Below, piece by piece: positions 12,312 through 61,604 of a stretch of DNA of 64,000 bases. The stretch lies in contig CAZJXP010000001.1 of NCBI GenBank assembly GCA_964550175.1, forward strand, positions 248,294 through 312,293, in the 5' to 3' direction. How positions within the stretch are numbered: the stretch's first letter is position 1; every line of letters begins with the position of its first letter. The DNA is from an uncultured Methanosarcinales archaeon (GTDB taxonomy: Archaea > Nanobdellota > Nanobdellia > Woesearchaeales > ARS49). The notes beneath the pieces were generated by a model. It was not told the DNA's origin and ran no database searches. It saw only the letters and a program-made list of their open reading frames with translations. The position numbers and the translations under genes are program-made.

Positions 12312-12344
12312 AATTAAAGAAACAGACGAGACGTTATTTAAAGC

Positions 12345-13460: not shown

Positions 13461-13654
13461 GTCAAGATGGACGTATTACGACTATATAAAACAAATCAGT
13501 ATATAATTGTTATGACTGTTTTCGTCGATGATGGACATGAAAACAGCAGAATTCGCCTTTTTGCCCCTTATAAATGACCTTAAAATCTATATAAAATATA
13601 TAAATTATAAGGACAATTAATATATACTTCCTTTAGCTCTATCTTTACTACTTA
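13461..13654. promoter_or_regulatory. AT-rich divergent promoter region with several TATA-like boxes
   Basis: ctatataaaaca, ttataaatga and atatataaatta lie between divergently oriented genes. Confidence 0.4.
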
Positions 13655-14290: not shown

Positions 14291-14337
14291 ATCTGAATAA
14301 CCACCACAATAAAACATAAAATCACGAGAGGATAAAT

Positions 14338-18436: not shown

Positions 18437-18457
18437 TATATTCAAATACTTGAAATA

Positions 18458-19147
18458 ATGATGACAGGGACCATATTTCTTTCCGGAGGGGGTAATTCAA
18501 TAATTTATAAAGATTTTGACAATGCTCTATCGAAAAAAATTGCCGGTGGTAAAATATTGTGTATTCCTTTTGCTAATCAAAAAAAGAGCCGGGAAGAACA
18601 TGTCGACTGGATGAATCGAGTATTCAATAAATTTCAAAAGAGCAAAATACTGATTGTCAAGAATGTAGCTGATTTGAGAAAAATTAAAATGAACACGCTC
18701 GCACTAGTATATATCTCAGGAGGAAATACTTTTCAACTTCTAAAAAAATTAAACGTAGAAGGGATCAACATGCTAAGAGAATACTATGCGAAAGGAGGCA
18801 CTATTTATGGAAGTAGCGCCGGTGCAGCAGTGCTAGGAACGAGCATTCTAACAGCAAGTATTGATGATACCAACAAAGTACATATCGATAGTACTAATGG
18901 TTGTAATCTCATAAACGGATATTCAGTATATTGTCACTATAAGAAAGACGACCAGTGGAAATTTGATATTTTTATCAATGAACATCGGATTAAAAAAATA
19001 TTAATCTTGCCGGAAGGATCAATTATCTCCATCCAAAATAAATCCGTGCGTACAATTAAAAATACAGCGTATAAAATTAGTGCTAAAGCCAACTTAGAGT
19101 ATCAAATAAAAAAAATAAAAAAAAGAATTACTTCAATTCATACGTAA
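18458..19147 (+). CDS. peptidase S51 family (dipeptidase E or cyanophycinase-like)
   Basis: YISGGNTFQLLKKL and GSSAGAAVLG carry the nucleophile Ser, characteristic of S51. Confidence 0.75.
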   Translation: MMTGTIFLSGGGNSIIYKDFDNALSKKIAGGKILCIPFANQKKSREEHVDWMNRVFNKFQKSKILIVKNVADLRKIKMNTLALVYISGGNTFQLLKKLNVEGINMLREYYAKGGTIYGSSAGAAVLGTSILTASIDDTNKVHIDSTNGCNLINGYSVYCHYKKDDQWKFDIFINEHRIKKILILPEGSIISIQNKSVRTIKNTAYKISAKANLEYQIKKIKKRITSIHT

Positions 19148-21130: not shown

Positions 21131-22768
21131 TTATTTAAAAACTGTCTGACACAGTTCGACGAACGTCGCGTTCGACCATAATTGAACTGGACTGCCTTGG
21201 GACGAGAGATGGGACGCGCTGCTCAGTTCGCCCGATACGTTGATGACATCCAATTTTTGCGACTTCATGCCCGCTTCCGTGATCTTGTGAATGTATTTCG
21301 CATAATGCTTCGCATCAAGATGTTTCATCGCGATGGCCGCGAGGTTGTTGAGCCAGAACCAGGAGTCGCCATGATGGTAGCTTTTTGCGTTCTCTCCTGT
21401 GCTGTCCTTCGTGAACGACGGGCTGGCTTTGTCGATGGTTGCGAGTCCACCCCAGTCGAGCCACAACGCGTCCAACGCACGGTCGAATCCATCCGTCCAT
21501 TCTTGCTTCGTGAACAATTCAGGATAAAGATAGGCGGCAAGGAAAAGGTTGGGGCGTATCTCAGAATGTCCCTTGCCGTCTATGATTGTGCGGTTCTTGA
21601 GGAAATCTCGCCTCACTGCGACTTTCAATTGCAATTCTCGTACATCCTGCTTGCCTGAGAGTTTGCTGTTCAGCTTAAGCACCGCTAATGTTAACGCCTG
21701 GATTTCGATGTTCGCGCCTTCTCTTGATTCAGAATCCATCCAGGTCTCGCCTGCCAAGTTAACGATGACACCTTCATTGAATCTCGTCTTGAATAACGAG
21801 TCTAAGACGGCGTTGAGCTTCTGCTTGACGAACGCGAGCTCCTTGCTCGTGACAAATGTTTTGAGCACTCTCGCTTTTTCCAACGCTTGCAGGAATTCTC
21901 CAATTCTGAAAAAGAGCCAACCGGGAGCGTCGGCAGACTTCGCGCCGTCGCGTTTCGATTGCAACGTGACGTCAACGTTTGCGAGATGCTTCCACAGGAT
22001 TTTCTTGACCGTCGCGAACTCTTTTGCGAGGATAAGGGATTTCAACGAGATTAATTCGTCCCTTGCCCAAACCTGCGAGAACCACGGCAAGCCCGCAAGA
22101 AGTCCGTCGGGAGTTTTCAGCGCGTCGATGGCGAGGAGGGCGTTCGCGACTTCGGTTGATTTTCCTTTGGCGAGTAACGCGAGACGTTTCGCTTTTTGCG
22201 ACTTGAGTTTCGAGCGCTGCGCGAACATATTGATTGCCGTCTCAACGGCCTCGTTCTTGTTCGTGCTGAACGCGAACACCGCGTCCTTGATCCTGAGCTT
22301 GCACGCCTGGTACACCCAACGCGTCCACGGCCAGGAATTCCGTTGCTGGTCTTTCGAGTACATCCGTTCGGTCCATTTCTGGATCGGGAGGTATTCCAGT
22401 TCATCCCCGAAAATGGCGACGTGCAATTGGTATTCGCTCGGGTTACCCATGCCGTCCCTGGGATCGTTGAACTTCGAAAACGAGAAGACCAAGCACTTGT
22501 GCATCTGCGAAACTTCGTACGCCCGGCCCCACTGGCGGTTGTCGAACAGTTCACCGCAATCTAAATTGAGCGTGGTTTCCGTTGCGTTCGGAAGATTAAC
22601 GACAAACGCATTCTGGTTGTCCGGCATCCAGCAACATTCTGCCGGAACGTCCAACGACTCGATGACGCGGAACACGCGATTGTCTTTGCGCAGGAACACG
22701 CCGTCGTAACGGCTCTGCGGAACTCTGAGTAATGCGAACGAGCCTTGGCCGTTGCTGAGCAAAATCAT
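21131..22768 (-). CDS. glycogen debranching enzyme, amylo-alpha-1,6-glucosidase (GDE_C) family
   Basis: C-terminal YHHGDSWFWLNN motif and (alpha/alpha)6-barrel-like length of 545 aa. Confidence 0.8.
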   Translation of the reverse strand: MILLSNGQGSFALLRVPQSRYDGVFLRKDNRVFRVIESLDVPAECCWMPDNQNAFVVNLPNATETTLNLDCGELFDNRQWGRAYEVSQMHKCLVFSFSKFNDPRDGMGNPSEYQLHVAIFGDELEYLPIQKWTERMYSKDQQRNSWPWTRWVYQACKLRIKDAVFAFSTNKNEAVETAINMFAQRSKLKSQKAKRLALLAKGKSTEVANALLAIDALKTPDGLLAGLPWFSQVWARDELISLKSLILAKEFATVKKILWKHLANVDVTLQSKRDGAKSADAPGWLFFRIGEFLQALEKARVLKTFVTSKELAFVKQKLNAVLDSLFKTRFNEGVIVNLAGETWMDSESREGANIEIQALTLAVLKLNSKLSGKQDVRELQLKVAVRRDFLKNRTIIDGKGHSEIRPNLFLAAYLYPELFTKQEWTDGFDRALDALWLDWGGLATIDKASPSFTKDSTGENAKSYHHGDSWFWLNNLAAIAMKHLDAKHYAKYIHKITEAGMKSQKLDVINVSGELSSASHLSSQGSPVQLWSNATFVELCQTVFK

Positions 22769-23688
22769 TTTTCCCCTCGGTAGAACGCCGCGGCGTCCTC
22801 GGGCGCGACGGTGTTGATGATGATTCCCGAGCCGAATTCGAAGCCCGCGAACAGGCTGATTCTCGGCAATAGTTCTAAATGCAAGTGCAGGTCTTCATTT
22901 GACGGCGAATATTTGAGGACAAGATTGTAGGAACAGTTGAGCTTGAGAAGTTTGCCGAGGACTTGCTTGAGCAGATTTGCTAAACTTGTCGAATTAATTT
23001 CGTTCAGATTTCTGACGTGCGCCTTCGGGAACAGCCAGCATTCGTAGTTGAATCTCGACGCGTACGGCGTGAACGCGACCCAGTCGTTGTTTTCGAAACA
23101 GCGTCTCGCGCTGTTCTTTTCTGATGAAATGATGGCGCAATGAGGACAGTCGATGAACTTTCGTCTGGCAAGAACTAATTCATTTATTTCCGTCGGGATG
23201 ATAGGTGTCGCGATGACCTGACTGTGGCTGTGGATGAGGCTTGTGCCGGCATCGACGCCTGAATTCTTGAAAACGGAAACGTACGCGTGATTTTTTGACA
23301 ACGCGTCGATGCGGTTCTTGTACGCGTCAATGACCAAACTGATTTCTTTTTCGGATAACTCTGCGAGTTGCCGATGGTCGGGGGTTTCAACAATGACTTC
23401 GTGCGTGCCGGACGCTTTCGCAACGGTGTAAAAACGATTGTCCGTTTTGAGCCGGAAGTTATCGGGATGAACGGCCGCGAACCTGTTTTCGAACCATCGG
23501 ACTTGCCATTCTTTTCCGTACGGAAGCCTTCCGAGTTCCGTTGGTGTTAACGATTCGTGACCGGGACAGAAGAAGCACGACGTGGTCGCGATGGTAGATG
23601 CCTTCTGGAACTCATTAGGCCGTTCGCCACGCTTCGGCGCGATGATCACCCAACGATCCAGGAGGTAGTCTTTCCTCAGTTCGCCCAA
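22765..23688 (-). CDS. galactose-1-phosphate uridylyltransferase-like (GalT/HIT superfamily) nucleotidyltransferase
   Basis: Zn motif CFFCPGHE and active-site HSHSQV (H-x-H-x-Q). Confidence 0.8.
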   Translation of the reverse strand: MGELRKDYLLDRWVIIAPKRGERPNEFQKASTIATTSCFFCPGHESLTPTELGRLPYGKEWQVRWFENRFAAVHPDNFRLKTDNRFYTVAKASGTHEVIVETPDHRQLAELSEKEISLVIDAYKNRIDALSKNHAYVSVFKNSGVDAGTSLIHSHSQVIATPIIPTEINELVLARRKFIDCPHCAIISSEKNSARRCFENNDWVAFTPYASRFNYECWLFPKAHVRNLNEINSTSLANLLKQVLGKLLKLNCSYNLVLKYSPSNEDLHLHLELLPRISLFAGFEFGSGIIINTVAPEDAAAFYRGEK

Positions 23689-29997: not shown

Positions 29998-31758
29998 CTA
30001 CAAGAATGTCATATTTCTGCACTTAAGAGAATGCGCCAGAAGCACCAGTTTCTTGAGGTCTTCCGTCTTAACGGGCTTCGTAATCGGGAACGTGACCGGC
30101 CCGTCGCACCATTTCTGGAACGCGGCCTGCAGCTTGAGCTGGTGCTCGGCAGACGCTTTCGTGACAAATAGCTTCGCTCCCTTCGGCAACACGCCTTTCT
30201 GCGCGACCTTGACGATGTCCGCCTTAGTCAAGCCGTTCTTTTTCGCGAACTCGGCAAACAGCGGATGCACCTCCAGCCCATCAGCGAATTTAACAGCATA
30301 GGATAACGGTTCAAGCATCTTCACGCCCGCGATTGCCGTAACGGCGCTCGGAATTATCGCGGTGACTGAGGCGTTGCGCGTTCCCTTGCTTTTCTTGTCC
30401 TTCGCGTCGAAATTCGGGAACGAGCCGCGCTTCGCCAACTCATTCGACGCTTTTCGCGCCTCATCTGAGATGAATTTCATGAGCTTCTCAGCGTGTTCAA
30501 TCGCTTTCGGCGAATCATACGAAATGCCGAGCTTGATGAGCATTTCTGCAAACCCCATCACGCCGAGCCCGATACGTCGATGCGCTTTCGTTATCGCTTC
30601 GCTTTCAGGAGAGGGATATACCGTCACATCGATGGCGTTGTCGAGGAAATGGACGGCGTCGCGAGCGGCTTGCGCCAACCGTTCCCATTCGGGCTTGCCA
30701 TTCTTGACGAACAACGACACGTTCAAGAAACCTGAAAACCAGGACTCCAACGGCACAGGCTCGTCAAGCGTGAGCAACGGCTCGCTAGAGTGGATGATGC
30801 GCAGCGCGATAAGGTCGAAGACCTCCTTCGCCTGCAAGGAACGCGCGAGCTGGTGCGTCTTAGGGTTGACAAGATGATACGCGGACGAAGTCGAAACCGC
30901 CTTCAAGAACGCGTCCGTGAGCACGACTTGCGACGATTTCGCCGTAAATTCAAGAATGTCTGGATGGTCGATGCGCAAACTTGCGGTGTGCATGGCGCGC
31001 TTCACGACCTCGGTCGAAGTCTCGAACAGGCGCAAGAAACTCATCGGGCCAGAAGCGACGCCGTGCTTGACTTTGTCCCCTTTCGGCCGGATGTGGGAGA
31101 ATGAAATGTTCGCGTGCGTGCCCGCGTGCTGGATAAGGGCAGCTTGCTTAAGCGTTTCGAATATTTCCGGAAGCGAGTCTCCGACGCGCAGGGAAATTGC
31201 TGAAACAAGATTGTTCGACGCGCCCGCGTTCTTCAGGATGGTTTCGTTCGGCAAAAACTCGAGCTTGGACAGCATCGCAAAGAAGCGGTCTTCCACTTTT
31301 GAGAGGTTTTTCGCGTCATGCGCGCGGTCTCCTTGAGCTACGACCTTCGCGACGCGGCGGAACAGCCGCACCGGAGTCTCGGCAATCGTTCCCTGATCGG
31401 AGCGCAGCAGATACTGTTCGCCAAGAACTCGCAAGGTCGTGTCGCTCAACCCTAATTCGTCGCGCACGCCCAGGAAGGTTCTAAATTCTCGCACTTTGTG
31501 CTGGCCGCGGTACTGCAACAAGGATTTGGTCGATTGCTTGTTTTTCAGCAAAGTTTCTTCAATGATGTCTTGAACGTCCTGCGTTGTTGGAATTATAGTG
31601 GAGAACAGTTTCGTCACTGTTTGAACGACGCTTTCGGCGAGCTTCTTCGGGTTCGCCTTCGTGTTTTCAACGGCCTTCGTTATCGCGAGAAGAATCTTTT
31701 GGGGTTGGAACAACTCCAAGGATCCATCACGCTTCCGGATCTGGGCGAGTTTCGCCAT
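29998..31758 (-). CDS. ribonucleotide reductase class II-like paralog with N-terminal ATP-cone, lacking the catalytic cysteines
   Basis: The ATP-cone (AKLAQIRKRDGSLELFQPQKILLAI) and the segment GVASGPMSFLRLFETS...ASLRIDHPDILEF align to nrdJ (GGTSSGLMSFLKVFDTG...KMVCLDIDHPDILSF). The protein has only 2 Cys in total and no NPCxE motif. Confidence 0.7.
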   Translation of the reverse strand: MAKLAQIRKRDGSLELFQPQKILLAITKAVENTKANPKKLAESVVQTVTKLFSTIIPTTQDVQDIIEETLLKNKQSTKSLLQYRGQHKVREFRTFLGVRDELGLSDTTLRVLGEQYLLRSDQGTIAETPVRLFRRVAKVVAQGDRAHDAKNLSKVEDRFFAMLSKLEFLPNETILKNAGASNNLVSAISLRVGDSLPEIFETLKQAALIQHAGTHANISFSHIRPKGDKVKHGVASGPMSFLRLFETSTEVVKRAMHTASLRIDHPDILEFTAKSSQVVLTDAFLKAVSTSSAYHLVNPKTHQLARSLQAKEVFDLIALRIIHSSEPLLTLDEPVPLESWFSGFLNVSLFVKNGKPEWERLAQAARDAVHFLDNAIDVTVYPSPESEAITKAHRRIGLGVMGFAEMLIKLGISYDSPKAIEHAEKLMKFISDEARKASNELAKRGSFPNFDAKDKKSKGTRNASVTAIIPSAVTAIAGVKMLEPLSYAVKFADGLEVHPLFAEFAKKNGLTKADIVKVAQKGVLPKGAKLFVTKASAEHQLKLQAAFQKWCDGPVTFPITKPVKTEDLKKLVLLAHSLKCRNMTFL

Positions 31759-34731: not shown

Positions 34732-35259
34732 ATGAAACGACTGCTCATCTTGATTTTGTTATTAACGGCCTGCGCGCCGATGAAGAACGTTGACGGGGAA
34801 CAAACCATGACAAATGTGCTTTTACAGACCACCAAAGGAGATATCACGATTCAATTGAACGACAAGATGGTTATTACCGCGGGAAACTTCAAGAAATTAG
34901 TCTCTGAAGGATTCTACGACAACACCATCTTTCATCGTGTGATTCCTGACTTCATGGTGCAAGGCGGCGACCCGAAAGGAACGGGCACGGGCGGACCGGG
35001 CTACGAGATTAAGGACGAGTTTTTGCCCGGCAACGCGAACAACCGCGGCACGATATCGATGGCGAACGCAGGCCCTAATACTGGAGGGTCGCAGTTCTTC
35101 ATCAACGTCGCGAACAACAATTTCCTGGACACGAAGCATCCTGTTTTCGGCAAAGTCACAAAGGGAATGGACGTAGTTGACGCGATCGTGAACTCCGAAC
35201 GCGACAGAAACGACAAGCCGTTGGAAACGATTAAGATTGTGAAGGCGACGATAATATAA
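34732..35259 (+). CDS. cyclophilin-type peptidyl-prolyl cis-trans isomerase, lipoprotein (lipobox LTAC)
   Basis: FHRVIPDFMVQGGDP, GPNTGGSQFFIN, and N-terminus MKRLLILILLLTACAP. Confidence 0.9.
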   Translation: MKRLLILILLLTACAPMKNVDGEQTMTNVLLQTTKGDITIQLNDKMVITAGNFKKLVSEGFYDNTIFHRVIPDFMVQGGDPKGTGTGGPGYEIKDEFLPGNANNRGTISMANAGPNTGGSQFFINVANNNFLDTKHPVFGKVTKGMDVVDAIVNSERDRNDKPLETIKIVKATII

Positions 35260-35263
35260 CTTT

Positions 35264-36133
35264 ATGCCAATCGAATCGAATAGTCCGCACTCAGCACCAA
35301 AATCAACGTGGCCACTATTTCGACATTGGAAACAAAGTCCTTCATTTAGAGCACAAACAAAAATAGGGCTCATAAGTGGAGTTATTTTCTTCATTGCGGG
35401 ACTATTTGCATCCCCCGTAGTAACTCCCTTCGTCGCACACATTTTTGAAGTTGAAAAACAAATAGTCATCACTATTGCGCGCAGTTATCTTATCGATGAT
35501 TATGAAAAATATCCAACATATGAGCACGTATTTTTTGTAACTGGCTGCGGAACCAGAAATCTCGTATTCATGCGTAACGGAGAATATCCTGAGCAGCTTC
35601 AACAGCAAGTATTATTTTTGGGCACAACTAAAATTTGTCCTAATTGCACTCAATTTAACACTGCATTTTATAATGTTGGAAAACCGTTTAAAAATAATCT
35701 GTTTTTCCGATTTAAAAGCTCTAGTAAATTTGAATTTGATGAAGGAAGCCCTGAAGTAACCATTAGACAAAACGTAGATGCTATTCAACCTAATTTTATA
35801 ATTGAAATACTTGGCGGGATTAAACCTGTTACGGATTTAATTCATTTCAGTGGGCATATTACCCGAGTTGGTTCAATTAACACCACATGTAATGATGTTG
35901 AAAAAGATAATTGTATTTTTGTAAAGTATGATGTTGCTGTTCTAAAAAATCAGAGCAGGATTGATAAGTTTTTTGCCGAAAATATGATCAAAGAACCACT
36001 ATATGATCCTCATGGCATGCTTGAATACCAACTGAATGAACATAATGAATTTAAACTGGGGAATGCCAGTTTTTTTACTGAATTATGTAAACCGAGCGAA
36101 AAACTGGACTTACAGTCAAAACAAATTAGTTAA
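35264..36133 (+). CDS. hypothetical membrane-anchored protein (AT-rich gene)
   Basis: 289 aa with one N-terminal TM. Codon usage is visibly more AT-rich than the neighbours. Confidence 0.45.
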   Translation: MPIESNSPHSAPKSTWPLFRHWKQSPSFRAQTKIGLISGVIFFIAGLFASPVVTPFVAHIFEVEKQIVITIARSYLIDDYEKYPTYEHVFFVTGCGTRNLVFMRNGEYPEQLQQQVLFLGTTKICPNCTQFNTAFYNVGKPFKNNLFFRFKSSSKFEFDEGSPEVTIRQNVDAIQPNFIIEILGGIKPVTDLIHFSGHITRVGSINTTCNDVEKDNCIFVKYDVAVLKNQSRIDKFFAENMIKEPLYDPHGMLEYQLNEHNEFKLGNASFFTELCKPSEKLDLQSKQIS

Positions 36134-36642: not shown

Positions 36643-37058
36643 TAGTGCAAATACCCCTGAATCAATCCTAGTGTGTACGCAACGACCTTCTCATGCTCCC
36701 CTTCCCAGTGCGGCGGAACGCTGCGTTCAGCGATAAACCCCACATTCATGAGAATATCCGTCGCAGCCTCGGCAAGAATGCGCGCCTCAAGCATGTCGTT
36801 CGTTTTCAGACAGTGATCCCGAATCGGCTCCAACATGTCGTCACCATACTCCAGCAACCAACGATAGCCCTCGCAGTCTTTGCGACGAGCCATATCCCCG
36901 TTATGCTGAAAAGTCGCAGCATGTTGGTCTAACAGCTTGAACGCAATCGCAAATTTTTCGCAGGACGATTCGCTCAACTGCACCCCATTGAATTCCCGCA
37001 GTTCAGGCACTTGTAGCACGAACCGTTTCTTACAGTCACGTGGCCGCAGGAAGAGCAA
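36642..37058 (-). CDS. hypothetical protein, start uncertain
   Basis: The ORF overlaps the nrdJ 3' end by 85 nt. A TTG at 36977 preceded by ggggtg, or the ATG at MARRK, would remove the overlap. Confidence 0.35.
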   Translation of the reverse strand: MLFLRPRDCKKRFVLQVPELREFNGVQLSESSCEKFAIAFKLLDQHAATFQHNGDMARRKDCEGYRWLLEYGDDMLEPIRDHCLKTNDMLEARILAEAATDILMNVGFIAERSVPPHWEGEHEKVVAYTLGLIQGYLH

Positions 37059-40045
37059 GCGGGCGCGTCACCCATCATCTTGCCCATCGACTGCTGGAAG
37101 CCCGAGACGTCGCTTTCCATCTTCGGAGCCTCGTAGTTCGTCAATGCAGCCTGGACGTCGACCTGCTGCGCGACGGGACCGGGGCCTTCGCTGATCTTGA
37201 CTTCGTCCATCGTGGTCGGCTTGACGTGCAAAAAGTCCGTTCGGCCAAGATATTCGAATCCCAAGATTCGGAACACCAAGTCGATAATCGACGTGCACAT
37301 GCGGATGTTCGGATGGTCGGTCATGCCGTTCGGCTCGAAGCGTGTGAAGGTGAACTTCTCCACGAACTTCTCCAACGGAACGCCGTACTGCAATCCAATC
37401 GACACGGCAATCGCGAAGCAGTTCACGAGTGAACGATACGCGGCGCCTTCCTTGTGCATGTCGATGAAAATCTCGCCGATCTTGCCGTTGTCGTACTCGC
37501 CCGTGCGGAGGAAAATCTTGTGCCCCGCAACGGTCGACTCGATGGTGATGCCCTTTCGCTTAACAGGCAATCCGAGCTTCTCGCCGTGCTTCAACCCAGT
37601 GTATTCCTGCATGACCACGGTCGGCTCGACCTTCGCATCCGCCTTTGAGTCTGATTTCGTGTTCAAGGGTTGCGACGCCTTGCAACCATCTCTATACAAC
37701 GCAATCGCTTTGAGTCCCAATCGCCAGCCTTCGACGTAGATCTTCTCGATTTCTTCCACGGTCGTGCTGTTCGGGATGTTGACCGTCTTCGAGATGGCGC
37801 CCGAGATGAACGGCTGCACGGCCGCCATCATCTTGATGTGCCCCATCGGGTCGATGAATCGCTTGCCGATGCCGCAGACGTTTGCGCAGTCGAACACGGC
37901 CGCGTGCTCCGGGTTCAAGCCCGGAGCTCCTTCAAGCGTCTGAGCTCCTTCGATGAACACCTTCGCCTCGTCAATCTGCTCCTTGCTCAATCCCTTGTTG
38001 ATGAGCGTCTTCGGGTTGATGTGCGGGGTCCAGTCCGTCCACGTCTTGGCCTTTTGCACGGCCTCTTCGGCTTCGCGCACTTGGTCGGGAGTGAAGCCCA
38101 TCTTGAGCAGCGCCTCGTGATGCACGTGCGGCGCCCCCTCGAACGTGTTGTGGCCCAACACATACTCGAGCATCTCGCCCATGTCGTCCTCGGAATAGCC
38201 CAACGACCGCAAGGCGCGGATGATGCTGTTGTTGACAATCTTGAAGTATCCGCCGCCCGCGAGCTTCTTCCACTTGACGAGCGCGAATTCGGGCTCGACG
38301 CCCGTGGTGTCGCAATCCATCAGCAGTCCGATGGTTCCGGTCGGCGCGATGACGGTGGCTTGCGCGTTTCGGTAGCCGTACTTTTCGCCCAACTCGACCG
38401 CGTGGTCCCAGTCTTCTCTCGCGGCCTTGAGCAAATCCGCCGGGCAGAAACGGACGTCCAACTGGTACGCCGCGTCACGGTGCTTGCGCATCACGCGCAA
38501 ACAAGGCTCCTTGTTCTTCGCATAGCCCGGGAACGGTCCCTTGACCGCGGCCATTTCGGCCGACGCGAGGTACGCGTGACCGGTCATGATTGCGGTCAAT
38601 GCGGCAGCGATTGCTCGGCCCTTATCCGAGTCGTACGGCACGCCTTGGACCATCAATAACGTCCCGAGGTTTGCGTAACCGAGTCCTAAGGTTCGGTAAT
38701 CGTGGCTGTTCTGCGCGATCTGCTGCGTCGGGTACGATGACAAATCAACAAGAATTTCCTGCGCGACGAAGAACGTACGACACGCGTGGCGGTAGCCTTC
38801 GATGTCGAAGACGCCATCATCGCTCAAGAATTTCATCAAATTAACGCTTGATAAGTTGCATGCCGTGTCGTCCAAGAACATGTATTCCGAGCACGGGTTC
38901 GACGCGTTGATGCGGCCGGTGTTCGAGCACGTGTGCCAGTCATTGATGGTCGTGTCCAATTGCACGCCCGGGTCGGCGCACGCCCACGCGGCGTCAGCGA
39001 TCTTGCGCATCATGAATTTAGCATCATATTCCTTCGCGACCTTGCCGTTCGTTCGCCACTTCGTCGCGAACGTGCTACCGGTCAAGTAGGCGTTCATGAA
39101 TTCGTCCGACAATCGGACGCTGTTGTTCGAGTTCTGGCCCGCGACGGTCGCGTAGGCTTCGCCGTTGAAGTCTGCCGGGAATCCGCCGTGCTCGATCAAA
39201 ATCTTGGCCTTCTTCTCCTCATTCGCCTTCCATTCCACAAACGAAAGGATGTCCGGGTGGTCGATGTCCAAGCAGACCATCTTGGCCGCTCGACGAGTCG
39301 TTCCGCCGGACTTGATCGCGCCCGCGCCGGTGTCAAAGACTTTCAAGAAGCTCATCAATCCTGAACTGGTGCCGCCGCCGGACAACTTCTCGCCCGAGCC
39401 TCGCAACTTGGAAAAGTTCGTGCCGGTGCCGGAGCCGTACTTGAAGACCGTGGCTTCCTGGCCTAAGAGACTGAAAATGTTCCGGATGTCGTCCTGCACG
39501 CTTTGGATAAAGCAAGCCGAGCACTGCGGACGCTGGTAGGCGTTCGCCATGACGTCGATCTTGTTCGTCTGGAAGTTCCAGCCGAAGTTTCCCGCGCTGC
39601 CGAGAATGCCGTACTGGTGGAACAATCCGCAGTTGAACCAGACGGGCGAGTTGAACGCGCCGCGTTGGGTAAGAAGCATATACGCCAATTCGTCCTCGAA
39701 CGTGTCGGCCATCTCCTTGCCGCGGAAGTAACCGTGCTCCTCGCCATAGGTGCGGATGGTGTGAGCGATTCGGTAGACGACCTGCTTGACGTTGATTTCG
39801 GAATCCGTTCCCGGAACGCCGGCCTTTCGGAAATACTTTGAAACGACGATGTCGGTGGCGAGCTGAGACCAGGTCTTGGGGACTTCGACGTCCTTCATCT
39901 CGAACACGATGCGGCCGTCCGGCTCCTTGATGACGCTGGAGCGCTTATCGTACTCGACCATGTCGTACGGGCTCGTGCCCGAAGTGAACTTTCGCTGCAC
40001 AATCAATCCCGGAGTCTCAACTGTTACTTGCACCATTACTCGCAC
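36974..40045 (-). CDS. nrdJ: adenosylcobalamin-dependent ribonucleotide reductase, class II
   Basis: 1023 aa. NPCSEY catalytic loop, VCLDIDHPD, and a C-terminal Cys-rich zinc ribbon (CSSCGH...CYKCLNCGN). Confidence 0.9.
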   Translation of the reverse strand: MRVMVQVTVETPGLIVQRKFTSGTSPYDMVEYDKRSSVIKEPDGRIVFEMKDVEVPKTWSQLATDIVVSKYFRKAGVPGTDSEINVKQVVYRIAHTIRTYGEEHGYFRGKEMADTFEDELAYMLLTQRGAFNSPVWFNCGLFHQYGILGSAGNFGWNFQTNKIDVMANAYQRPQCSACFIQSVQDDIRNIFSLLGQEATVFKYGSGTGTNFSKLRGSGEKLSGGGTSSGLMSFLKVFDTGAGAIKSGGTTRRAAKMVCLDIDHPDILSFVEWKANEEKKAKILIEHGGFPADFNGEAYATVAGQNSNNSVRLSDEFMNAYLTGSTFATKWRTNGKVAKEYDAKFMMRKIADAAWACADPGVQLDTTINDWHTCSNTGRINASNPCSEYMFLDDTACNLSSVNLMKFLSDDGVFDIEGYRHACRTFFVAQEILVDLSSYPTQQIAQNSHDYRTLGLGYANLGTLLMVQGVPYDSDKGRAIAAALTAIMTGHAYLASAEMAAVKGPFPGYAKNKEPCLRVMRKHRDAAYQLDVRFCPADLLKAAREDWDHAVELGEKYGYRNAQATVIAPTGTIGLLMDCDTTGVEPEFALVKWKKLAGGGYFKIVNNSIIRALRSLGYSEDDMGEMLEYVLGHNTFEGAPHVHHEALLKMGFTPDQVREAEEAVQKAKTWTDWTPHINPKTLINKGLSKEQIDEAKVFIEGAQTLEGAPGLNPEHAAVFDCANVCGIGKRFIDPMGHIKMMAAVQPFISGAISKTVNIPNSTTVEEIEKIYVEGWRLGLKAIALYRDGCKASQPLNTKSDSKADAKVEPTVVMQEYTGLKHGEKLGLPVKRKGITIESTVAGHKIFLRTGEYDNGKIGEIFIDMHKEGAAYRSLVNCFAIAVSIGLQYGVPLEKFVEKFTFTRFEPNGMTDHPNIRMCTSIIDLVFRILGFEYLGRTDFLHVKPTTMDEVKISEGPGPVAQQVDVQAALTNYEAPKMESDVSGFQQSMGKMMGDAPACSSCGHVTVRNGSCYKCLNCGNSMGCS

Positions 40046-44615: not shown

Positions 44616-47600
44616 TTAAGATTTCCGCTTCTTCTCGGCCTTGTCGTGGGCCAAGTGGCGCCAGTGAACCGCCAATGAGAAGAATGTCGCCGCAATAAAG
44701 AACGCCAGCAACGCCAACAACCACCAGGGAAGCTCCTTCAATGCGCTCACAACTGCATTATCTGGAGCGGGAGGCTGCCTTACCGGGAACGCCGGGATTG
44801 AACGTATGACCACAACACGGCCATCAACCTGGTCGCCGACAAGCACCCGGTCGCTTCCGCGAGCGAACGCTCCGCCGTCTTCTGAGACGCCGCCAAACGT
44901 CGCGCCTTGCGGCTCGCACAGTTCATCGAACAAATCTTCCTGCTCTGGACCCCATTGCCCGTTTTGGCAGAACTGAACGCGGTCATCCGCGGGGTTGCAC
45001 GCGAACCAGCCAGGATTGCACTCGAGCTTGGCACAGCTGGCCGCGTAATCCTCATCGGACTGCTCAATCGGAGCCCAATGCTCGTCAACGCACAACTCTT
45101 CGCGTTCCAAATCAAAATTGCACTGGCGTTCGCTGCCTTCGCACTCGGGCAGAGGAACAATCACATCATCTGCGGGAGGCAATCCCTCCACGCACGCCTG
45201 CTCGTAACCGCCAACAATCGGAAAGTACTCGCCGCCATCGCAAACCGAGAACTGCTGAAGTTCGTCGTCGCAAATAGAATCTCCCTCATTACAACCTGAC
45301 GCGGCAGCCAAACCGCCGCAATTTTCGCCCGGGACCGTCTCATCCATCGACCAGAACCCGAATTCGTTGCAGCTCCAATACGAGCTGTCGCCTTCAAAAA
45401 ATTCGCAATGCTGCTCGCCCGGAACGCATTCCTGTCCGGGATCGGCAACGCAATTTTCCTCATACGCGGCAGGATCAGAAATGAATATGGCTCCGGTCGC
45501 CGCCTGCAAGTACGCGTTGCGCTTCAGTTGAGCGGAAGCGAACACGCTCTCAGACTCCCGATTTCCCGCATCGTCCGCTATCGGACGATTCTCTCCCGCG
45601 CCAGCGCCGGAATAGCCTCCTGCCGGAGGCGGGGTCGAGCTCGCCGGATTTGTCAGCCACTCGCCGTTCGCATTGCACACACGGTATTCTAATAGTTCGG
45701 CATCGCAGAACGTTTCTCCATACAGGCACTCCGCCTGGAAACAGTTGTTTTGCACTTGAGCCGGATCGCGAGTGGTCGCCCAACGGCCGTCCTCCTCGCA
45801 GTAATGGAACGCATACTCCTCCTCGCTTATCTCACACTGAGTCGCCCCAGGATTGCACTCAGGAACATCCTGCGCGCAGTAATCAAAGAAACCATCTTGC
45901 ACGCCGACAACCGCCATGTTTGCGGATGCGAGCGTCGCCCAATGGCCCGACGCGTCACAGCGCTGGAACGAGTATTCGGCGTTGTCGCACAATATCTCGC
46001 CCGGATTGCACTCGGTCGATGCCGCGCAAGGCCCCTGATACATGTACTCGCCGTTGCTGCATGAATAGGCCATTCCCGTCGGAGTGCAAAAATCTTCCTG
46101 ACCGGCGCACGCGTCGTTCTCGCAATATTGCGACCATAAATACGCATCATCAATCGCCGGACTCCAGAATCCCATCGGGCTGCAGAGCGTGACCGTGCCC
46201 TCAAAACAGACGCTCGTTCCCGGCATGCACGATTCTTCAGGAGGAACGCCGCACTGCGTTTCATACAATCCGTCAACCGGAGTCAAGAATCCGCTGATGC
46301 AGATTGACGCCGTCTCGGTTGCGTCATCGCACACGGGCGGGCTGTTCGGGTTGCATCCCGGAACCGTTGGACAGCCGCAGACCGGGCAGTCTGAACCGCC
46401 GCAATCCACACCAGTCTCATCACCATCTTGAACACCGTTCGGGCAATGGACTCGGGGCGTTGAACAGGTCGGACAGCCACCGCCGCAGTCCACTCCGGAC
46501 TCGTCTGAATCTTGCACGCCGTTCGCGCAATGTCCGGCGCATGCCGGGCAGTACGCGCCACCGCAGTCAACGCCCAGCTCATCGAAGTCCTTGACATCAT
46601 TATAGCAGTTGTCGCCGGGCAAAGCCACGCCGGCGCCCACCGTCTTGTAAACTGAAAACGCAACGCTCTTGGAAAAGCTCTCATCGTCAATGTCGCCGAG
46701 CACCTTGTTCACAACAAGCTGGTACTGTCCCGCGACGGGAGCTTGCTTCATCTTGTACACGACCAAAAGATATTTGATGTCGTCGACCGTAGGATCCATC
46801 TCAAACGCGGGCTGAATGGATACGTACATTTCGTTGTCGCCATCGGGCCAAGCTCGTTCGCCGACGAGCGTGTCAACATACGGAAGATAGACCCCGTCCG
46901 AGTTTGCGTCAATCGCGACAATCACTTTTTCGACGCCGGTCGCGGTGCCGTCACCGGAATATTTCATGCCTATCTGCTTCACTTCAATCAGCTTTTTGCC
47001 CTGAACCTGCAGCTTGAGCTGCAACATCACGTTGTACACATCCTCTCCTGGCTGCCAGCTGTGGTCGCCCGGAGTCTTTTCGCCCGCGGTCACCGTAAGA
47101 TCCGAGCAAGGCGTCGAGCAGTCTCCCCCGCAGTCAACGCCGTCCTCATCATCATCCTGAATTCCGTTCGAGCATACATCAGTTGATTGACACACGCCGC
47201 TGGCGCAGTACGCGCTTTGGCAGTCAGCGGAAGTCGCGCACGTTTTTCCGTTCGCGCAATCCGAGCACGTGCCGCCGCAATCGACGTCAGTTTCCGCGCC
47301 GTTCTTGGTTCCATCCGTGCATGACGCCAAGGCGCCAGTGCAAGCGCCACCAGTGCATCCCGCATATCCCTGAGACGTGCAAAGCTGATTCGTTGAGCCT
47401 ATGGCGTAGGTATAGTAATTATAGCACGTTGGCGGCCCGACCCCGCCGGAACTGCAGGATTGCTGAAGCGTGGGCGTGCAATAGTTTTCGCTCACGTAAC
47501 AGCTAGCGCCCGTGCATGAAGAAACCTGAGAATACCCTGAAATGCACACGTCGCTCCGCTGAACCCAGTCCCCGGGGCCGGGCACGCTAGCATAGGAATA

Positions 47601-47738
47601 ATTGATTCGTCCGAACACATTATAGACTTGGCCGCCATCGGAATCAGAGCAATACGTCACGGTCTGAGCAGAAACCGCGAACGAGGAGAGCACGAAGGCT
47701 ACAATCAACAGAATGATTGTGCCTGTGAAACGACTCAT
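44616..47738 (-). CDS. large cysteine-rich extracellular protein with signal peptide, repeated acidic Cys modules (D-x-D-E-x-G-V-D-C-G-G-x-C-x-x-C) and C-terminal TM anchor
   Basis: 1040 aa. Signal MSRFTGTIILLIVAFVLSSFAVSA. At least five GVDCGG modules and many C-x-x-G-x-W-type Cys pairs. C-terminal WWLLALLAFFIAATFFSLAV plus a basic tail. Confidence 0.7.
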   Translation of the reverse strand: MSRFTGTIILLIVAFVLSSFAVSAQTVTYCSDSDGGQVYNVFGRINYSYASVPGPGDWVQRSDVCISGYSQVSSCTGASCYVSENYCTPTLQQSCSSGGVGPPTCYNYYTYAIGSTNQLCTSQGYAGCTGGACTGALASCTDGTKNGAETDVDCGGTCSDCANGKTCATSADCQSAYCASGVCQSTDVCSNGIQDDDEDGVDCGGDCSTPCSDLTVTAGEKTPGDHSWQPGEDVYNVMLQLKLQVQGKKLIEVKQIGMKYSGDGTATGVEKVIVAIDANSDGVYLPYVDTLVGERAWPDGDNEMYVSIQPAFEMDPTVDDIKYLLVVYKMKQAPVAGQYQLVVNKVLGDIDDESFSKSVAFSVYKTVGAGVALPGDNCYNDVKDFDELGVDCGGAYCPACAGHCANGVQDSDESGVDCGGGCPTCSTPRVHCPNGVQDGDETGVDCGGSDCPVCGCPTVPGCNPNSPPVCDDATETASICISGFLTPVDGLYETQCGVPPEESCMPGTSVCFEGTVTLCSPMGFWSPAIDDAYLWSQYCENDACAGQEDFCTPTGMAYSCSNGEYMYQGPCAASTECNPGEILCDNAEYSFQRCDASGHWATLASANMAVVGVQDGFFDYCAQDVPECNPGATQCEISEEEYAFHYCEEDGRWATTRDPAQVQNNCFQAECLYGETFCDAELLEYRVCNANGEWLTNPASSTPPPAGGYSGAGAGENRPIADDAGNRESESVFASAQLKRNAYLQAATGAIFISDPAAYEENCVADPGQECVPGEQHCEFFEGDSSYWSCNEFGFWSMDETVPGENCGGLAAASGCNEGDSICDDELQQFSVCDGGEYFPIVGGYEQACVEGLPPADDVIVPLPECEGSERQCNFDLEREELCVDEHWAPIEQSDEDYAASCAKLECNPGWFACNPADDRVQFCQNGQWGPEQEDLFDELCEPQGATFGGVSEDGGAFARGSDRVLVGDQVDGRVVVIRSIPAFPVRQPPAPDNAVVSALKELPWWLLALLAFFIAATFFSLAVHWRHLAHDKAEKKRKS

Positions 47739-48004
47739 TTACCCTCTTTTATGCCATTCATAAATCAGTCTTATAAGAACGTTTGTTGTCATTCTCAAGA
47801 AAGAGCTACAACGAATGAAAGGCTTAACTCAGAAATGAAAAAAAAGAAACGCAGGGAGAGGAGGCCCTACGCTCTTTTGAGGAGAGTGACTCGCCTTTAG
47901 GAGGCGGTCAGAGGAGGACACGACGGAGGAGATGCGCACCGAGTATCGGCGGCAAGCAGCGGAGGCTGCTCGTGTCGGTAAATGAAAAGGCGCTTGCGCG
48001 CCCT

Positions 48005-48166
48005 GGATTAGTGTTTCACCTCCTGGTTTGATAATCGTGAATCGAACAGGTCGTCCTGGACGGAATCGTACGGATCCTTGTTGAAAATCTCGTCCCATTC
48101 AGGGTCGTGCGCCGGGCGCACGAACGCCTTGGGAAACGCGTTTGTTTTGTGTGTCACCTTTTTCAT
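48005..48166 (-). CDS. possible small acidic protein (53 aa, MKKVTHKTNAFPKAFVRPAHDPEWDEIF...)
   Basis: Uninterrupted ATG...TAA reading frame found by hand. Below the ORF-track length cut-off. Confidence 0.25.
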
Positions 48167-54988: not shown

Positions 54989-56737
54989 ATGACCGCGAAG
55001 TGCTGTGAAGTCTCCTGGGAAATCTGCAATAAGGTCGGCGGCATCTACACGGTCGTGTCGTCAAAAGCCCAGCGCATGGTCGAACGCTACGGCGACGGCT
55101 ATGTCGCGATCGGACCGTACTTTCCAACGAAAGTTGTCGGGGCATTCGAGGAAAAAGTTCCGCCTGACGCGTTGAAAGTCTCATTTGACGCACTGAAGCA
55201 GGAAGGCATCGAGTGCCACTACGGCACGTGGCTCATCAAAGGGAATCCGAACACGATTCTCATTGACACGACTCGGTTCGCGAAGCACGCGAACGGCATC
55301 AAGTCATTCCTCTGGGACACGTACAAAATCGACACCTTAGGGACGTCGTGGAACGACGTCGACGAACCCTTGGTATGGGCTTGGGCGGCCGGAAAGCTTG
55401 CGGAAAAGTTAGGCGGGGTCTGCCACTGCCACGAATGGCTCGCGGGCGGGGCGCTGCTGTATTTGAAATCGCATCATGCTTCTGTCGGCACCGTATTCAC
55501 GACGCACGCGACCGTGCTAGGACGCGCGCTTGCGAGCGAAGGCCGGCTTTACGATGTCATGGATTCTGTTGATGCGGATGCCGAAGCCGCCAAATACGGG
55601 CAAGGACTGAAGGCGAAATTCCAAATCGAGAAACAGTCCGCCAAGCACGCGGACGTGTTCACCACCGTGTCCGAAATCACGGGCATCGAAGCCGAGAAGT
55701 TCTTGGGCAGAAAGCCCGATGTTCTTTTGCCGAACGGGCTCGATATGGCGACGTATCCGACGTTCGAGGAAGTCAGCATCCGGCACAAACGCATGAAAGC
55801 AAAATTGTTCGACTTCATCATCGCATCGTTCTTTCCGTCCTACTCATTTGATTTGAACAACACGCTCGTGTACTTTATCGCCGGGCGGGCGGAATTCCAC
55901 GATAAAGGCATCGATATTTTTGTCAAAGCGTTGGGAAGACTGAATGACCAGCTCAAAGCGGAACACAGCGACAAGACCATCGTCGCGTTCTTCTTCGTGC
56001 CAGGCGCCGTCAGAGCGATCAAGCAAGGATTACTGGAAAGCAAGACCTACTACCGCGACCTCAAAGAAACCATCACGGAAGACGTCGACGAGATCGAACA
56101 CAATCTTTTGCAGGCGTTGATATCTGGCCAGCCAATCACCGAACCGCGCGTGTTCAACGAGGAATTACGCGCAGACATGAAGCGCAAATTGCTCCGATTC
56201 AAGCGCAACGGCAACCCGCCCGTGTGCACGCACGAAATGCAGGGAGACGACCAAATCCTTCAGGCATTTTCGAACGCCGGATTGGACAACGACGCGGACG
56301 ACCGCGTCAAAGTTATTTATTATCCCACCTATTTGAATGGAGCGGACGGACTATTAGACATGAACTATTACGACGCGATGCAAGGAGCGCATTTAGGCGT
56401 GTTCCCTTCATATTACGAACCGTGGGGATACACGCCCTTAGAAGCCGGTGCGCTGGGGGTTCCGTCGATTACGACGGATTTAGCTGGCTTCGGACGGTTC
56501 ATCTGCAAAGAATGCACGTTGCCGCAGAACCCGGGCATCTGGGTCCTGAAGCGCTGGAAGCGCACGGATGAACAGGTCGTCGAAGAGCTTACGCAAACGA
56601 TGCACATGTACGCGATACTCCAGAAACATCACAGGATAGCTAACAAGATAGCCGCGAGGCAGATAGCCGACAGGGCCGACTGGAGCTCGTTCATCGAAAG
56701 GTACATCGAAGCGGAAAATAAATCAGTCCAAAAGTAA
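54989..56737 (+). CDS. glycogen synthase, eukaryote-type GT3 family
   Basis: N-terminal EVSWEICNKVGGIYTV is the GT3 glycogen synthase hallmark. 582 aa. Confidence 0.8.
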   Translation: MTAKCCEVSWEICNKVGGIYTVVSSKAQRMVERYGDGYVAIGPYFPTKVVGAFEEKVPPDALKVSFDALKQEGIECHYGTWLIKGNPNTILIDTTRFAKHANGIKSFLWDTYKIDTLGTSWNDVDEPLVWAWAAGKLAEKLGGVCHCHEWLAGGALLYLKSHHASVGTVFTTHATVLGRALASEGRLYDVMDSVDADAEAAKYGQGLKAKFQIEKQSAKHADVFTTVSEITGIEAEKFLGRKPDVLLPNGLDMATYPTFEEVSIRHKRMKAKLFDFIIASFFPSYSFDLNNTLVYFIAGRAEFHDKGIDIFVKALGRLNDQLKAEHSDKTIVAFFFVPGAVRAIKQGLLESKTYYRDLKETITEDVDEIEHNLLQALISGQPITEPRVFNEELRADMKRKLLRFKRNGNPPVCTHEMQGDDQILQAFSNAGLDNDADDRVKVIYYPTYLNGADGLLDMNYYDAMQGAHLGVFPSYYEPWGYTPLEAGALGVPSITTDLAGFGRFICKECTLPQNPGIWVLKRWKRTDEQVVEELTQTMHMYAILQKHHRIANKIAARQIADRADWSSFIERYIEAENKSVQK

Positions 56738-60704: not shown

Positions 60705-61604
60705 CTAGACTTCAGCATCATCGCAGCTGATTCTTCCGCCATCGAGATCGTAGCTCATCTTAAGCCAGCTCAACCGCAGGCTCTTCGCCAGTTCGCAGAA
60801 ATCTTCAGTTTCGAGCTCGTATTCGACGCCGAAAACCGCTTTCTCGTTTTCTATAAACGGCAAAACTCTCTCGCATTCATCGTACTCGAAACATTGCTCG
60901 TTGACGGCGAAATCGAAGTGGTCGACTAACTCAGGAATCTGGTCCAAATCATTTTTCAGGCCGATGGACAATTTCCGTTTGTGCGCCTCATCGGCCAGCC
61001 ATTTGTTGTACGCCAACTGGGCTTGCGCCGTCAAGGAAAAACCGTTATCGTTCAGATACCCGTCAACATTGTCAGGTTCTACTCCGTCGCAGCCTTTTTC
61101 AACGGCCAAATCAAATCTTTTTCGCATAATAGGCGCGAGCAAGTCTATTCTTGACACATCAAGCCATTTCTCATCTTCCCAGCCTTCCAACGTATTGCCC
61201 AAAACCTCTTGTGGAAACTCAGCCTCGTCGGCTCTCCAGTCTTCGTAGCTTCCGGCGCTGAAGTAGCAGATGACCTTGATTTCTTTGCGCTGCAATTCTT
61301 TGATATCCTCTTTCGACGCATCAAACAAGTCGATATCATACATATCGACCGGATAATTCAAGTTAAGATCTCCCGCAAGTTGCCATTGCCAAGACGTTTT
61401 CGGAGCAGGTTTCCACCACGTAGTTTCGAGCGGGACAAAAGAGGACGTAACTTGTTCTACCACTGGCGTCGCATTTTGTTCTGACGTGCTGTTGACCACA
61501 ATCTCAGGAGCGGGCGGTGCTGCGATGAGCGGTTCTGCTTTTTCTTGAACGCAGCCGCTGACAAGAAGAAGCCCGATTAATACTTGCCAGAGTTTCATTT
61601 CCAA
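60705..61604 (-). CDS. glycoside hydrolase family 114-like (endo-alpha-1,4-polygalactosaminidase family) lipoprotein
   Basis: VICYFSAGSYEDWR and DGVEPDNVDGY TIM-barrel motifs. Lipobox LLLVSGC. Confidence 0.65.
   Translation of the reverse strand: MEMKLWQVLIGLLLVSGCVQEKAEPLIAAPPAPEIVVNSTSEQNATPVVEQVTSSFVPLETTWWKPAPKTSWQWQLAGDLNLNYPVDMYDIDLFDASKEDIKELQRKEIKVICYFSAGSYEDWRADEAEFPQEVLGNTLEGWEDEKWLDVSRIDLLAPIMRKRFDLAVEKGCDGVEPDNVDGYLNDNGFSLTAQAQLAYNKWLADEAHKRKLSIGLKNDLDQIPELVDHFDFAVNEQCFEYDECERVLPFIENEKAVFGVEYELETEDFCELAKSLRLSWLKMSYDLDGGRISCDDAEV

Follow-up and report, generated by a model that had tools for sequence, protein, structure and literature searches.

A cysteine-rich, membrane-anchored surface protein of a DPANN archaeon is a mosaic containing a widespread, uncurated DCGG module

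Introduction

DPANN archaea are mostly episymbionts, and how they recognise and hold their host cells is largely unknown. A gene for a 1040-amino-acid, cysteine-rich protein lies on contig CAZJXP010000001.1 of an uncultured archaeon (GCA_964550175.1), within a stretch of 64,000 nucleotides (positions 248,294 to 312,293 of the contig; hereafter the window, whose first letter is position 1). A first-pass annotation, made from the letters of the window, had described the product as a surface protein with repeated GVDCGG modules that might mediate attachment. The question raised by this locus is what the protein is composed of, and what it would do at the cell surface. We report here that the protein is a mosaic of a widespread but uncurated mini-module (the DCGG module), lineage-specific Cys repeats, a β-sandwich domain, and an N-terminal domain.

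Results

Export and anchoring

The coding sequence occupies 44616..47738 on the minus strand (1040 codons and a stop codon, read from the open reading frame (ORF) listing), and both its limits and its continuity were as annotated; all parts of the gene given below lie on the same strand. The layout of the product was derived from an alignment of five family members, a full-length AlphaFold2 model, and repeat extraction. The full-length model had a mean predicted local distance difference test score (pLDDT) of 52 and was useful only locally. At the N-terminus, hydropathy and a V-S-A cleavage motif followed by Q indicated a signal peptide (MSRFTGTIILLIVAFVLSSFAVSA; aa 1-24, 47667..47738), in which Arg3 precedes a hydrophobic segment (aa 4-24; hydropathy peaks at 2.4 over aa 4-22) and which was modelled as a helix at residues 2-19. 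This pattern was common to all family members. At the other end, a transmembrane helix (aa 1004-1026, 44661..44729; hydropathy up to 2.39) is followed by a basic cytoplasmic tail (WRHLAHDKAEKKRKS; aa 1027-1040, 44619..44660) ending in HDKAEKKRKS, and the model showed a C-terminal helix at 1005-1039. The tail was Lys/Arg-rich in all family members, and the combination of signal peptide, single C-terminal transmembrane helix, and basic tail was kept in all five aligned proteins. The terminal signals proposed in the first-pass annotation were thus borne out, whereas its count of more than 90 Cys was too high: the protein has 75 (7.2%), its commonest residues being Gly, Ala, Asp, Val, and Ser. These results provide good support for a Sec-exported, C-terminally anchored type I membrane protein that is Cys-rich and modular. 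Because every module type has an even number of Cys (4 for the short module and for each stalk repeat, 8 for the long unit, and 10 for the N-terminal domain), we infer that they form intramodule disulfides.

The DCGG module

The tetrapeptide DCGG occurs five times in the protein (aa 140-161, 189-211, 378-400, 404-425, and 432-454, each with its context of about 22 aa), against a chance expectation of about 0.07 from the composition of the protein (D 8.1%, C 7.2%, and G 10.6%). The five copies, M1 (CTDGTKNGAETDVDCGGTCSDC), M2 (CSNGIQDDDEDGVDCGGDCSTPC), M3 (CYNDVKDFDELGVDCGGAYCPAC), M4 (CANGVQDSDESGVDCGGGCPTC), and M5 (CPNGVQDGDETGVDCGGSDCPVC), had been taken for near-identical GVDCGG repeats. 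The number was correct; however, only M2-M5 read GVDCGG, M1 reading DVDCGG, and near identity is likewise limited to M2-M5, which have 11-14 of 17 core positions in common, against 8-10 for M1. We defined the module as C-[TS]-[DN]-G-[VI]-x-[ND]-G-x-E-[TS]-[DG]-[VI]-D-C-G-G-x(1-4)-C-x(2-3)-C, a unit of about 22-25 aa that contains four Cys, and all five copies fit this pattern.

The consensus of 1,510 copies from 122 proteins was C-[TS]-D-G-[VI]-[KQ]-N-G-x-E-[TS]-[DG]-[VI]-D-C-G-G-x(1-4)-C-x(2-3)-C. In these copies E10, D14, C15, and G16 were conserved at 100%, D/N3 at 99%, and N/D7 at 97%. A further four-Cys half, C-x2-G-x2-C-x4-DC-x-S-x2-C-x3-5-C, follows in about 60% of copies, giving a long unit with eight Cys. 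Among 2,773 copies in 238 proteins, all four Cys were present in 93%, and the exceptions were register shifts, so that the disulfide pairing could not be derived from correlated loss of Cys. An AlphaFold2 model of the module, built as the long 8-Cys unit from a 100-sequence alignment, reached a pLDDT of 89.9.

To examine the distribution of the module, a profile of 100 sequences was searched exhaustively with HMMER against representatives of clusters at 50% identity. At E<=1e-3 the profile matched 14,425 representative clusters, of which 3,002 passed E<=1e-30, and individual proteins contained as many as 41 matched stretches. The matches of the whole protein outside its own family, about 2,200 in number, all aligned only to aa 128-213 and 378-458. 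By source name, the carriers were mainly Myxococcota and Bacteroidota; others came from unclassified bacteria, the green alga Chromochloris, and the rotifer Adineta. The partner domains were all of extracellular types (CBM3, fibrinogen_C, FG-GAP, TSP_C, reprolysin-type proteases, PKD, Big, fn3, LamG, and the tails of the type IX secretion system, T9SS), and 156 of 217 Met-initiated carriers had a signal-like N-terminus. The DCGG module is a very common bacterial extracellular module that is special neither to archaea nor to the protein studied here.

The module was also encoded by 22 viral contigs of IMG/VR (L010-L031), typically as one copy at the extreme C-terminus of secreted enzymes. These viral proteins typically have 520-670 aa and a signal peptide; among them are an S8 subtilase (L022), a phosphoesterase (L013), and a Calx-β protein (L017). 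Several others had no Pfam match and resembled pectate lyases or β-helices by eye, and in some the sequence closes with a short tail rich in Lys and a terminal W-W.

Absence of the module from curated collections

Pfam-A (models up to 2025) and NCBIfam (2026) were scanned at several levels. The whole protein had no match in either set at E<=10, in agreement with the earlier failure to place it in a named family, and its five separate segments gave no Pfam match covering a DCGG module at the same threshold. Nor was anything found in the DCGG arrays of carriers with 14-32 copies (Pfam at E<=10 on P0004, P0005, and P0009, and NCBIfam at E<=1). Sequence searches of the PDB with the protein, the module profile, and the stalk-repeat profile returned nothing significant, and the DCGG half was unmatched; Foldseek of the modelled module against the PDB gave only E>4 and hence no significant solved fold. 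In the open-access literature, motif searches for DCGG, VDCGG, and IDCGG, as well as searches on cysteine-rich surface proteins of DPANN archaea, yielded nothing relevant.

The only recurring likeness to known folds concerned the second half of the long unit (G-x2-C-x4-D-C-x-S-x2-C-x3-5-C), which aligned with colipase, Dkk1/2, and LEAP-2 at non-significant sequence E values of 0.14-5 and, over 19-28 residues, was superposed at 0.4-0.8 Å on colipase and on inhibitor cystine knot (ICK) toxins, with non-significant Foldseek E values of 4.6-8.9. This likeness covers about 25 residues and leaves the DCGG half uncovered. It might suggest that the DCGG modules and Cys repeats are bioactive knottin-like inhibitors, toxins, or antimicrobials that are displayed or released. 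However, none of the matches (E 0.14-9) is significant, the matching stretch of 25 residues is present only once in the protein, the protein is anchored in the membrane and shows no obvious processing sites between its units, and no toxin or inhibitor family of Pfam was matched. We consider such a function very improbable.

Domains of the protein

Behind the signal peptide lies an N-terminal domain with ten Cys (aa 25-136, 47331..47666) and the motif Y-C-x-D-S-D-G-G, which would form the membrane-distal tip. Its residues C30, D32, and D34 are invariant across the family, and aa 60-135 were modelled as all β (pLDDT about 73-79); the domain had no Pfam match. It is followed by the long 8-Cys unit (aa 140-183, 47190..47321), recognised by regular expression and consensus, in which M1 is joined to the half C-x2-G-x2-C-x4-DC-x-S-x2-C-x3-V-C, and by the short 4-Cys module M2 (aa 189-211, 47106..47174).

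The next domain (aa 212-377, 46608..47105) has no Cys between aa 211 and 378 and was modelled as a β-sandwich of eight or nine strands (pLDDT 65-85); it is missing from the family member P0019. Foldseek matched it with the CBM-like N-terminal domain of a sialidase, TTHA1873, FnBPA, BslA, cohesin, and CBM32, the best E value being about 3e-4 with a target-normalised TM score of at most 0.47 and 8-15% identity. The model would thus assign it to a fold class of binding domains and to no specific family. The tandem short modules M3-M5 then follow (aa 378-454, 46377..46607); M3 bears the family-invariant signature VDCGGAYCP, and the three together are 56% identical to tandem modules of a Chitinophagales T9SS protein.

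From aa 456 to 941 (44916..46373), repeat extraction and alignment showed a stalk of ten 4-Cys repeats, nine regular and one degenerate, with 40 Cys in all. The repeated C..G..W pattern seen in the first reading of the sequence is thus real, and its unit is E-C-x-P-G-x3-C-x7-12-C-x2-4-G-x-W-x6-20-[YF]-x3-C, of which five proteins contain 32 copies. Each repeat was modelled as about three strands and a short helix, and the last two units reached a pLDDT of about 70. The array is broken by a low-complexity linker (aa 695-762, 45453-45656; pLDDT about 25), which is predicted to be disordered. The stalk repeats gave no significant match in the PDB, in Pfam, or outside the family: Sushi was not matched in Pfam, HRM was reached at E=0.64, and complement C2 at E of about 3. 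Between stalk and membrane, the family alignment revealed a juxtamembrane segment, R-V-x-V-G…V-V-V-I-R-S-I-P-A-F-P (aa 962-990, 44769..44855), for which AlphaFold2 predicted with modest confidence a β-hairpin of strands 964-971 and 974-982.

The transmembrane helix opens with a family-conserved P-W-W (nt 44721-44729), in which P1004 and W1005 are invariant. This motif is reminiscent of tripartite sorting signals. The archaeosortase/exosortase CTERM signals (PGF-CTERM and relatives) had no NCBIfam match at E<=10, and no archaeosortase was present among the scanned ORFs of the window; furthermore, the tail after the helix, of 14 aa in the present protein and about 35 aa in P0019, is long compared with CTERM-type signals.

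Composition and conservation of the gene

The gene has a GC content of 57.4%, against 50.6% for the window. Since a ribonucleotide reductase (RNR) gene (57.8%) and a P-type ATPase gene (57.9%) of the window have similar values, and the GC content at third codon positions (GC3, 0.646) is at the window mean (0.627), the description of the gene as locally very GC-rich was overstated. The excess sits in codon positions 1 and 2, the value for position 2 (0.491) being the highest in the window, and results from an amino-acid composition rich in Gly, Ala, Cys, and Pro.

Numerous overlapping ORFs of at least 100 aa lie within the gene, as had been pointed out. Together with a GC content above the window mean, they might indicate that the ORF arose by chance in GC-rich DNA or was inserted recently from a foreign source. 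Against this, full-length homologues retain the Cys, the termini, and the motifs, GC3 is native, the position of the gene is syntenic in related genomes, and the DCGG module is modelled with high confidence. The conservation data refute the chance-ORF explanation, foreign origin was dropped on account of the native GC3, and together these explanations retain practically no probability. The ORF is a real, native, and conserved gene.

Upstream of the ATG, a TATA-like box, TTATAA (47771..47776, about 33-38 nt upstream), and a Shine-Dalgarno-like GAGGGT (47741..47746, 3-8 nt upstream) were read from the sequence. The two closest relatives have an A/T-rich box at the position equivalent to the former, and relatives carry AGAGG or GAAGG at that of the latter. 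Ahead of the TATA-like box, a motif TCATT…GAATGA-[CT]-[AG]-ACA (47777-47830, minus strand), common to the loci L006 and L007, could be a putative regulator-binding site.

Relatives and gene neighbourhood

An identical protein (P0001) was recorded on one NCBI contig, of 969 kb, and on one Logan contig. Full-length homologues span 42-52% identity and include P0002 (42% identity and 99% coverage) and P0003. The overall architecture was common only to the present protein, P0002, P0003, P0016/P0121/P0122, and P0019, that is, to about seven proteins, all from DPANN archaea; P0063 has the N-terminal 10-Cys domain in common with the family. Orthologues differ in the number of DCGG modules (3-6) and stalk repeats (about 4-10), and both termini are conserved. 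When the C-terminal half alone was used as the query, only P0003 was found; the stalk-repeat profile had no match outside the family, and a single-sequence scan of species-representative genomes detected no members, so that the genome of the window is itself absent from that set. Alignment-based scans found the family only in two genomes and two metagenome contigs. We thus regard the protein as a member of an unannotated, rare, lineage-specific family, whose general kind, the modular anchored surface protein, is already familiar.

Where a source is named for family members, it is "Nanoarchaeota archaeon" or "Candidatus Woesearchaeota archaeon". The proteins with the full architecture stem mostly from groundwater, and several of the samples are from Hainich groundwater. 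Diphthamide synthase is a marker of archaea and eukaryotes, and its gene lies near that of the cysteine-rich protein, among ordinary metabolic genes. The link to DPANN archaea proposed earlier therefore holds, and the organism is a small-genome (about 1 Mb) DPANN archaeon of the Woesearchaeota or Nanoarchaeota type.

The gene order S49 peptidase, DUF192, diphthamide synthase, HTH_45, DUF7521, small ORF, cysteine-rich protein, RNase H-fold gene, HhH-GPD, and TrmB is shared with the two closest relatives only, and distant members sit in other neighbourhoods; a conserved operon partner was accordingly dropped. The 64-kb window contains no second DCGG or Cys-rich gene, and a nearby GC-rich ORF of 1023 aa, considered as a paralogue, was ruled out because it is a class II ribonucleotide reductase. 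About 270 nt upstream on the same strand lies an acidic 52-aa ORF without a signal peptide (48008-48166, minus), which has conserved protein counterparts of 45 and 47 aa in the two closest relatives, with the motifs PEW[DQ]E[IV]F and [DN]PY[DE]..[DE]DLF. At the P0019 locus (L009, 8467-10334), Cas4, Cas2, and Cas1 are encoded immediately downstream and a PKD-repeat protein upstream.

A possible adhesin-like function

Outward from the cytoplasm, the order of the parts would be basic tail, transmembrane helix, juxtamembrane hairpin, ten-repeat stalk, M3-M5, β-sandwich, M2, long unit, and N-terminal domain. In an adhesin, a stalk and an anchor typically carry distal ligand-binding domains. We propose that the disulfide-locked repeats and DCGG modules would form a stiff, protease-resistant stalk and its connectors, and that the β-sandwich and N-terminal domain, held far from the membrane, would bind a ligand of a partner cell or surface, a glycan or surface protein being the most likely. 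Within each module, the invariant acidic and amide residues D/N3, N/D7, E10, D/G12, and D14 would bind a divalent cation, probably Ca2+, which would rigidify the module. An adhesin-like protein displaying distal binding domains on a rigid stalk is the reading we favour, at a probability of roughly 0.5. It was preferred because of the episymbiotic lifestyle usually ascribed to DPANN archaea and the similar architectures predicted for Nanobdella, and the varying number of repeats between conserved termini was counted in favour of stalk behaviour. Adhesion and the kind of ligand are suggested by the topology, by the generic adhesin- or CBM-like β-sandwich, and by analogy with DPANN surface proteins.

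Several points weigh against this proposal. The fold matches of the β-sandwich are generic and point to no ligand, and the full-length model is too poor to establish the geometry of the stalk, so that rigidity is to be taken as presumed. Ca2+ binding is read from the conservation pattern of the acidic residues, and ligand binding and adhesion likewise are what we infer. No functional partner was found in the neighbourhood, where synteny extends only to the closest relatives. The ectodomain offers only one N-x-S/T sequon, which sets it apart from many archaeal surface proteins, and a family of about seven proteins is very rare; it therefore represents no general attachment device of DPANN archaea.

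The main competitor is an S-layer anchoring or stalk protein resembling SlaB, which would space a surface layer from the membrane and have no foreign ligand. A C-terminal transmembrane anchor with a long repetitive stalk, as found here, is the arrangement of SlaB or tetrabrachion, and the smallness of the family fits with S-layer proteins, which typically lack detectable distant homologues. The resemblance to SlaB is nevertheless one of topology alone. Occurrence in few genomes, variation in repeat number and domain content, and the lack of the β-sandwich in P0019 would be unexpected for a core component of a lattice. Archaeal S-layer proteins are usually heavily glycosylated, in contrast to the one sequon here; in addition, no SlaA-like gene adjoins the gene, whose average GC3 shows no codon bias of the kind typical of very highly expressed genes. 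On balance, we judge an S-layer anchor unlikely.

The ectodomain is strongly acidic, with 153 Asp and Glu against 38 Lys and Arg, and every DCGG module has invariant acidic positions. The protein could accordingly be seen as a polyanionic coat that sequesters Ca2+, Mg2+, or metal ions or binds carbonate mineral, with no specific ligand, and several family members do come from Hainich, a limestone aquifer. However, the acidic residues belong to conserved, folded, Cys-locked modules and not to low-complexity acidic tracts, thousands of proteins from a wide range of habitats have DCGG modules attached to their enzyme or binding domains, and the discrete β-sandwich and N-terminal domain favour specific recognition. 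A mere coat therefore seems distinctly improbable, and we retain the adhesin-like protein with distal binding domains as the preferred reading.

Other loci in the window

A low-GC island at about 12300-19100 has a GC content of 0.35-0.40 and a GC3 of 0.31-0.40, compared with 0.63 in the rest of the window. It contains genes for a GT1 glycosyltransferase (15294-16388) and an APH-type kinase (17651-18436), as well as several ORFs without Pfam match, and has the look of a surface-glycan island that is either hypervariable or horizontally acquired. Low GC content recurs over a further kilobase at about 35000-36000. The gene at 9963-12311 (minus) encodes a 782-aa protein with a clear signal peptide, internal hydrophobic segments, and no Pfam match, a candidate envelope protein as judged from these features; its gene model differs by source (782 or 732 aa).

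The window also carries a glycogen/α-glucan gene set (4443-6826, 21131-23688, 54989-56737, and 60705-61604), notable for a small genome, comprising GT5/GT4 starch-synthase-like, GH57, amylo-α-1,6-glucosidase (GDE_C), GalT-like, and GH114 genes and a eukaryote-type Glycogen_syn (PF05693, 487 bits). Two RNR-like genes lie 5 kb apart on the minus strand: 36974-40045 encodes the 1023-aa class II (B12-dependent) enzyme, which has a TSCPD domain and a C-terminal tail rich in Cys, and 29998-31758 a 586-aa ATP-cone protein with only a partial barrel match.

Discussion

In this study, a cysteine-rich protein of groundwater Woesearchaeota emerged as a concrete candidate for a component with which DPANN archaea recognise and hold their hosts: it is conserved, predicted to be surface-exposed, lineage-specific, and equipped with distal domains of binding type. 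More notable is that a module so common is absent from Pfam, NCBIfam, and the PDB. The DCGG module is present in more than 14,000 protein clusters, often in 10-40 copies per protein, and is invisible to these collections. A family definition and one structure would annotate extracellular "dark matter" in Myxococcota, Bacteroidota, the candidate phyla radiation (CPR) and DPANN archaea, and some eukaryotes, and the structure would show whether the module is an independent solution to the small Ca2+-rigidified connector. A more far-reaching statement is that the module is an undescribed, cation-binding, two-disulfide mini-domain with its own fold, uncatalogued across Bacteria, DPANN archaea, some eukaryotes, and viruses, which here builds an episymbiont-host adhesin together with lineage-specific repeats; we offer this combination as speculative and rather unlikely.

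Small Ca2+-binding disulfide modules are well known from LDLa, calcium-binding EGF (cbEGF), thrombospondin type 3 (TSP3), and Notch LNR. Like these, the DCGG module is a tiny extracellular module, presumably stabilised by disulfides, that forms tandem arrays in secreted proteins as a putative rigid connector, and its cluster of Asp, Asn, and Glu could cage Ca2+. The kinship with EGF, LDLa, or Cys-knot repeats suggested by the first-pass annotation was, however, not supported. LDLa (PF00057) has about 40 aa and six Cys paired C1-C3, C2-C5, and C4-C6, whereas the DCGG module is limited to four Cys and about 22-25 aa, and the LDLa profile with its D-C-x-D-G-S-D-E cluster had no match at E<=10 in the whole protein or the module segments. 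Similarly, EGF-like and cbEGF models had no Pfam match at E<=10, the number of Cys per DCGG unit being wrong for them, and the motif C-x-D-G-x-x-N-G-x-E-T-D-V-D-C-G-G-x-C-x-x-C sets the module apart from LDLa, EGF, TSP_3, and Notch alike. Dockerin (PF00404), with duplicated Cys-free EF-hand-like Ca2+ loops, was not matched in Pfam by the Cys-based DCGG modules, nor were PKD or Ig-like repeat families by the repeat units; the module corresponds to none of these or other well-described domains.

Two further families deserve mention. The N-terminal segment of disintegrins, C-G-N-G-x-x-E-x-G-E-E-C-D-C-G, and the Myxococcus cysteine-rich repeat (TIGR02232/DUF4215) appear to have a local motif of a flavour similar to N-G…E…D-C-G of the DCGG module. 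In some bacterial proteins, DCGG arrays are found together with metalloprotease domains of the reprolysin type, and the arrays are abundant in Myxococcota. Their spacing is, however, different from that of Disintegrin (PF00200), DUF4215, and TIGR02232, of which none was matched in Pfam or NCBIfam by the present protein at E<=10.

The stalk repeats resemble Sushi/CCP modules and the hormone-receptor domain of class-B GPCRs (HRM) in having four Cys, the local pattern C-x3-G-x-W…[YF]-x2-3-C, and mainly β predicted structure. They differ from Sushi (PF00084), which is all-β with about 60 aa, a conserved Trp, and four Cys paired 1-3 and 2-4, in that their units have 35-45 aa and a predicted short helix at the end.

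At the level of the whole protein, predicted surface proteins with a signal peptide, β-sandwich folds, and a transmembrane helix at the C-terminus recur in the cultivated DPANN archaeon Nanobdella (bioRxiv 10.1101/2023.10.27.564410). The protein described here has no sequence homology to these proteins or to SlaB, MSCRAMM, and RTX proteins; it also differs from them in a stalk made of Cys-rich mini-modules instead of Ig-like, PKD, or coiled-coil elements, and in having almost no potential for N-glycosylation. It nevertheless follows one general plan with the predicted surface proteins of Nanobdella aerobiophila, with SlaB-type anchors, and with the bacterial MSCRAMM and RTX adhesins: a signal peptide, one or more β-sandwich domains, a repetitive stalk, and a membrane anchor at the C-terminus, the putative ligand-binding domains lying at the distal end.

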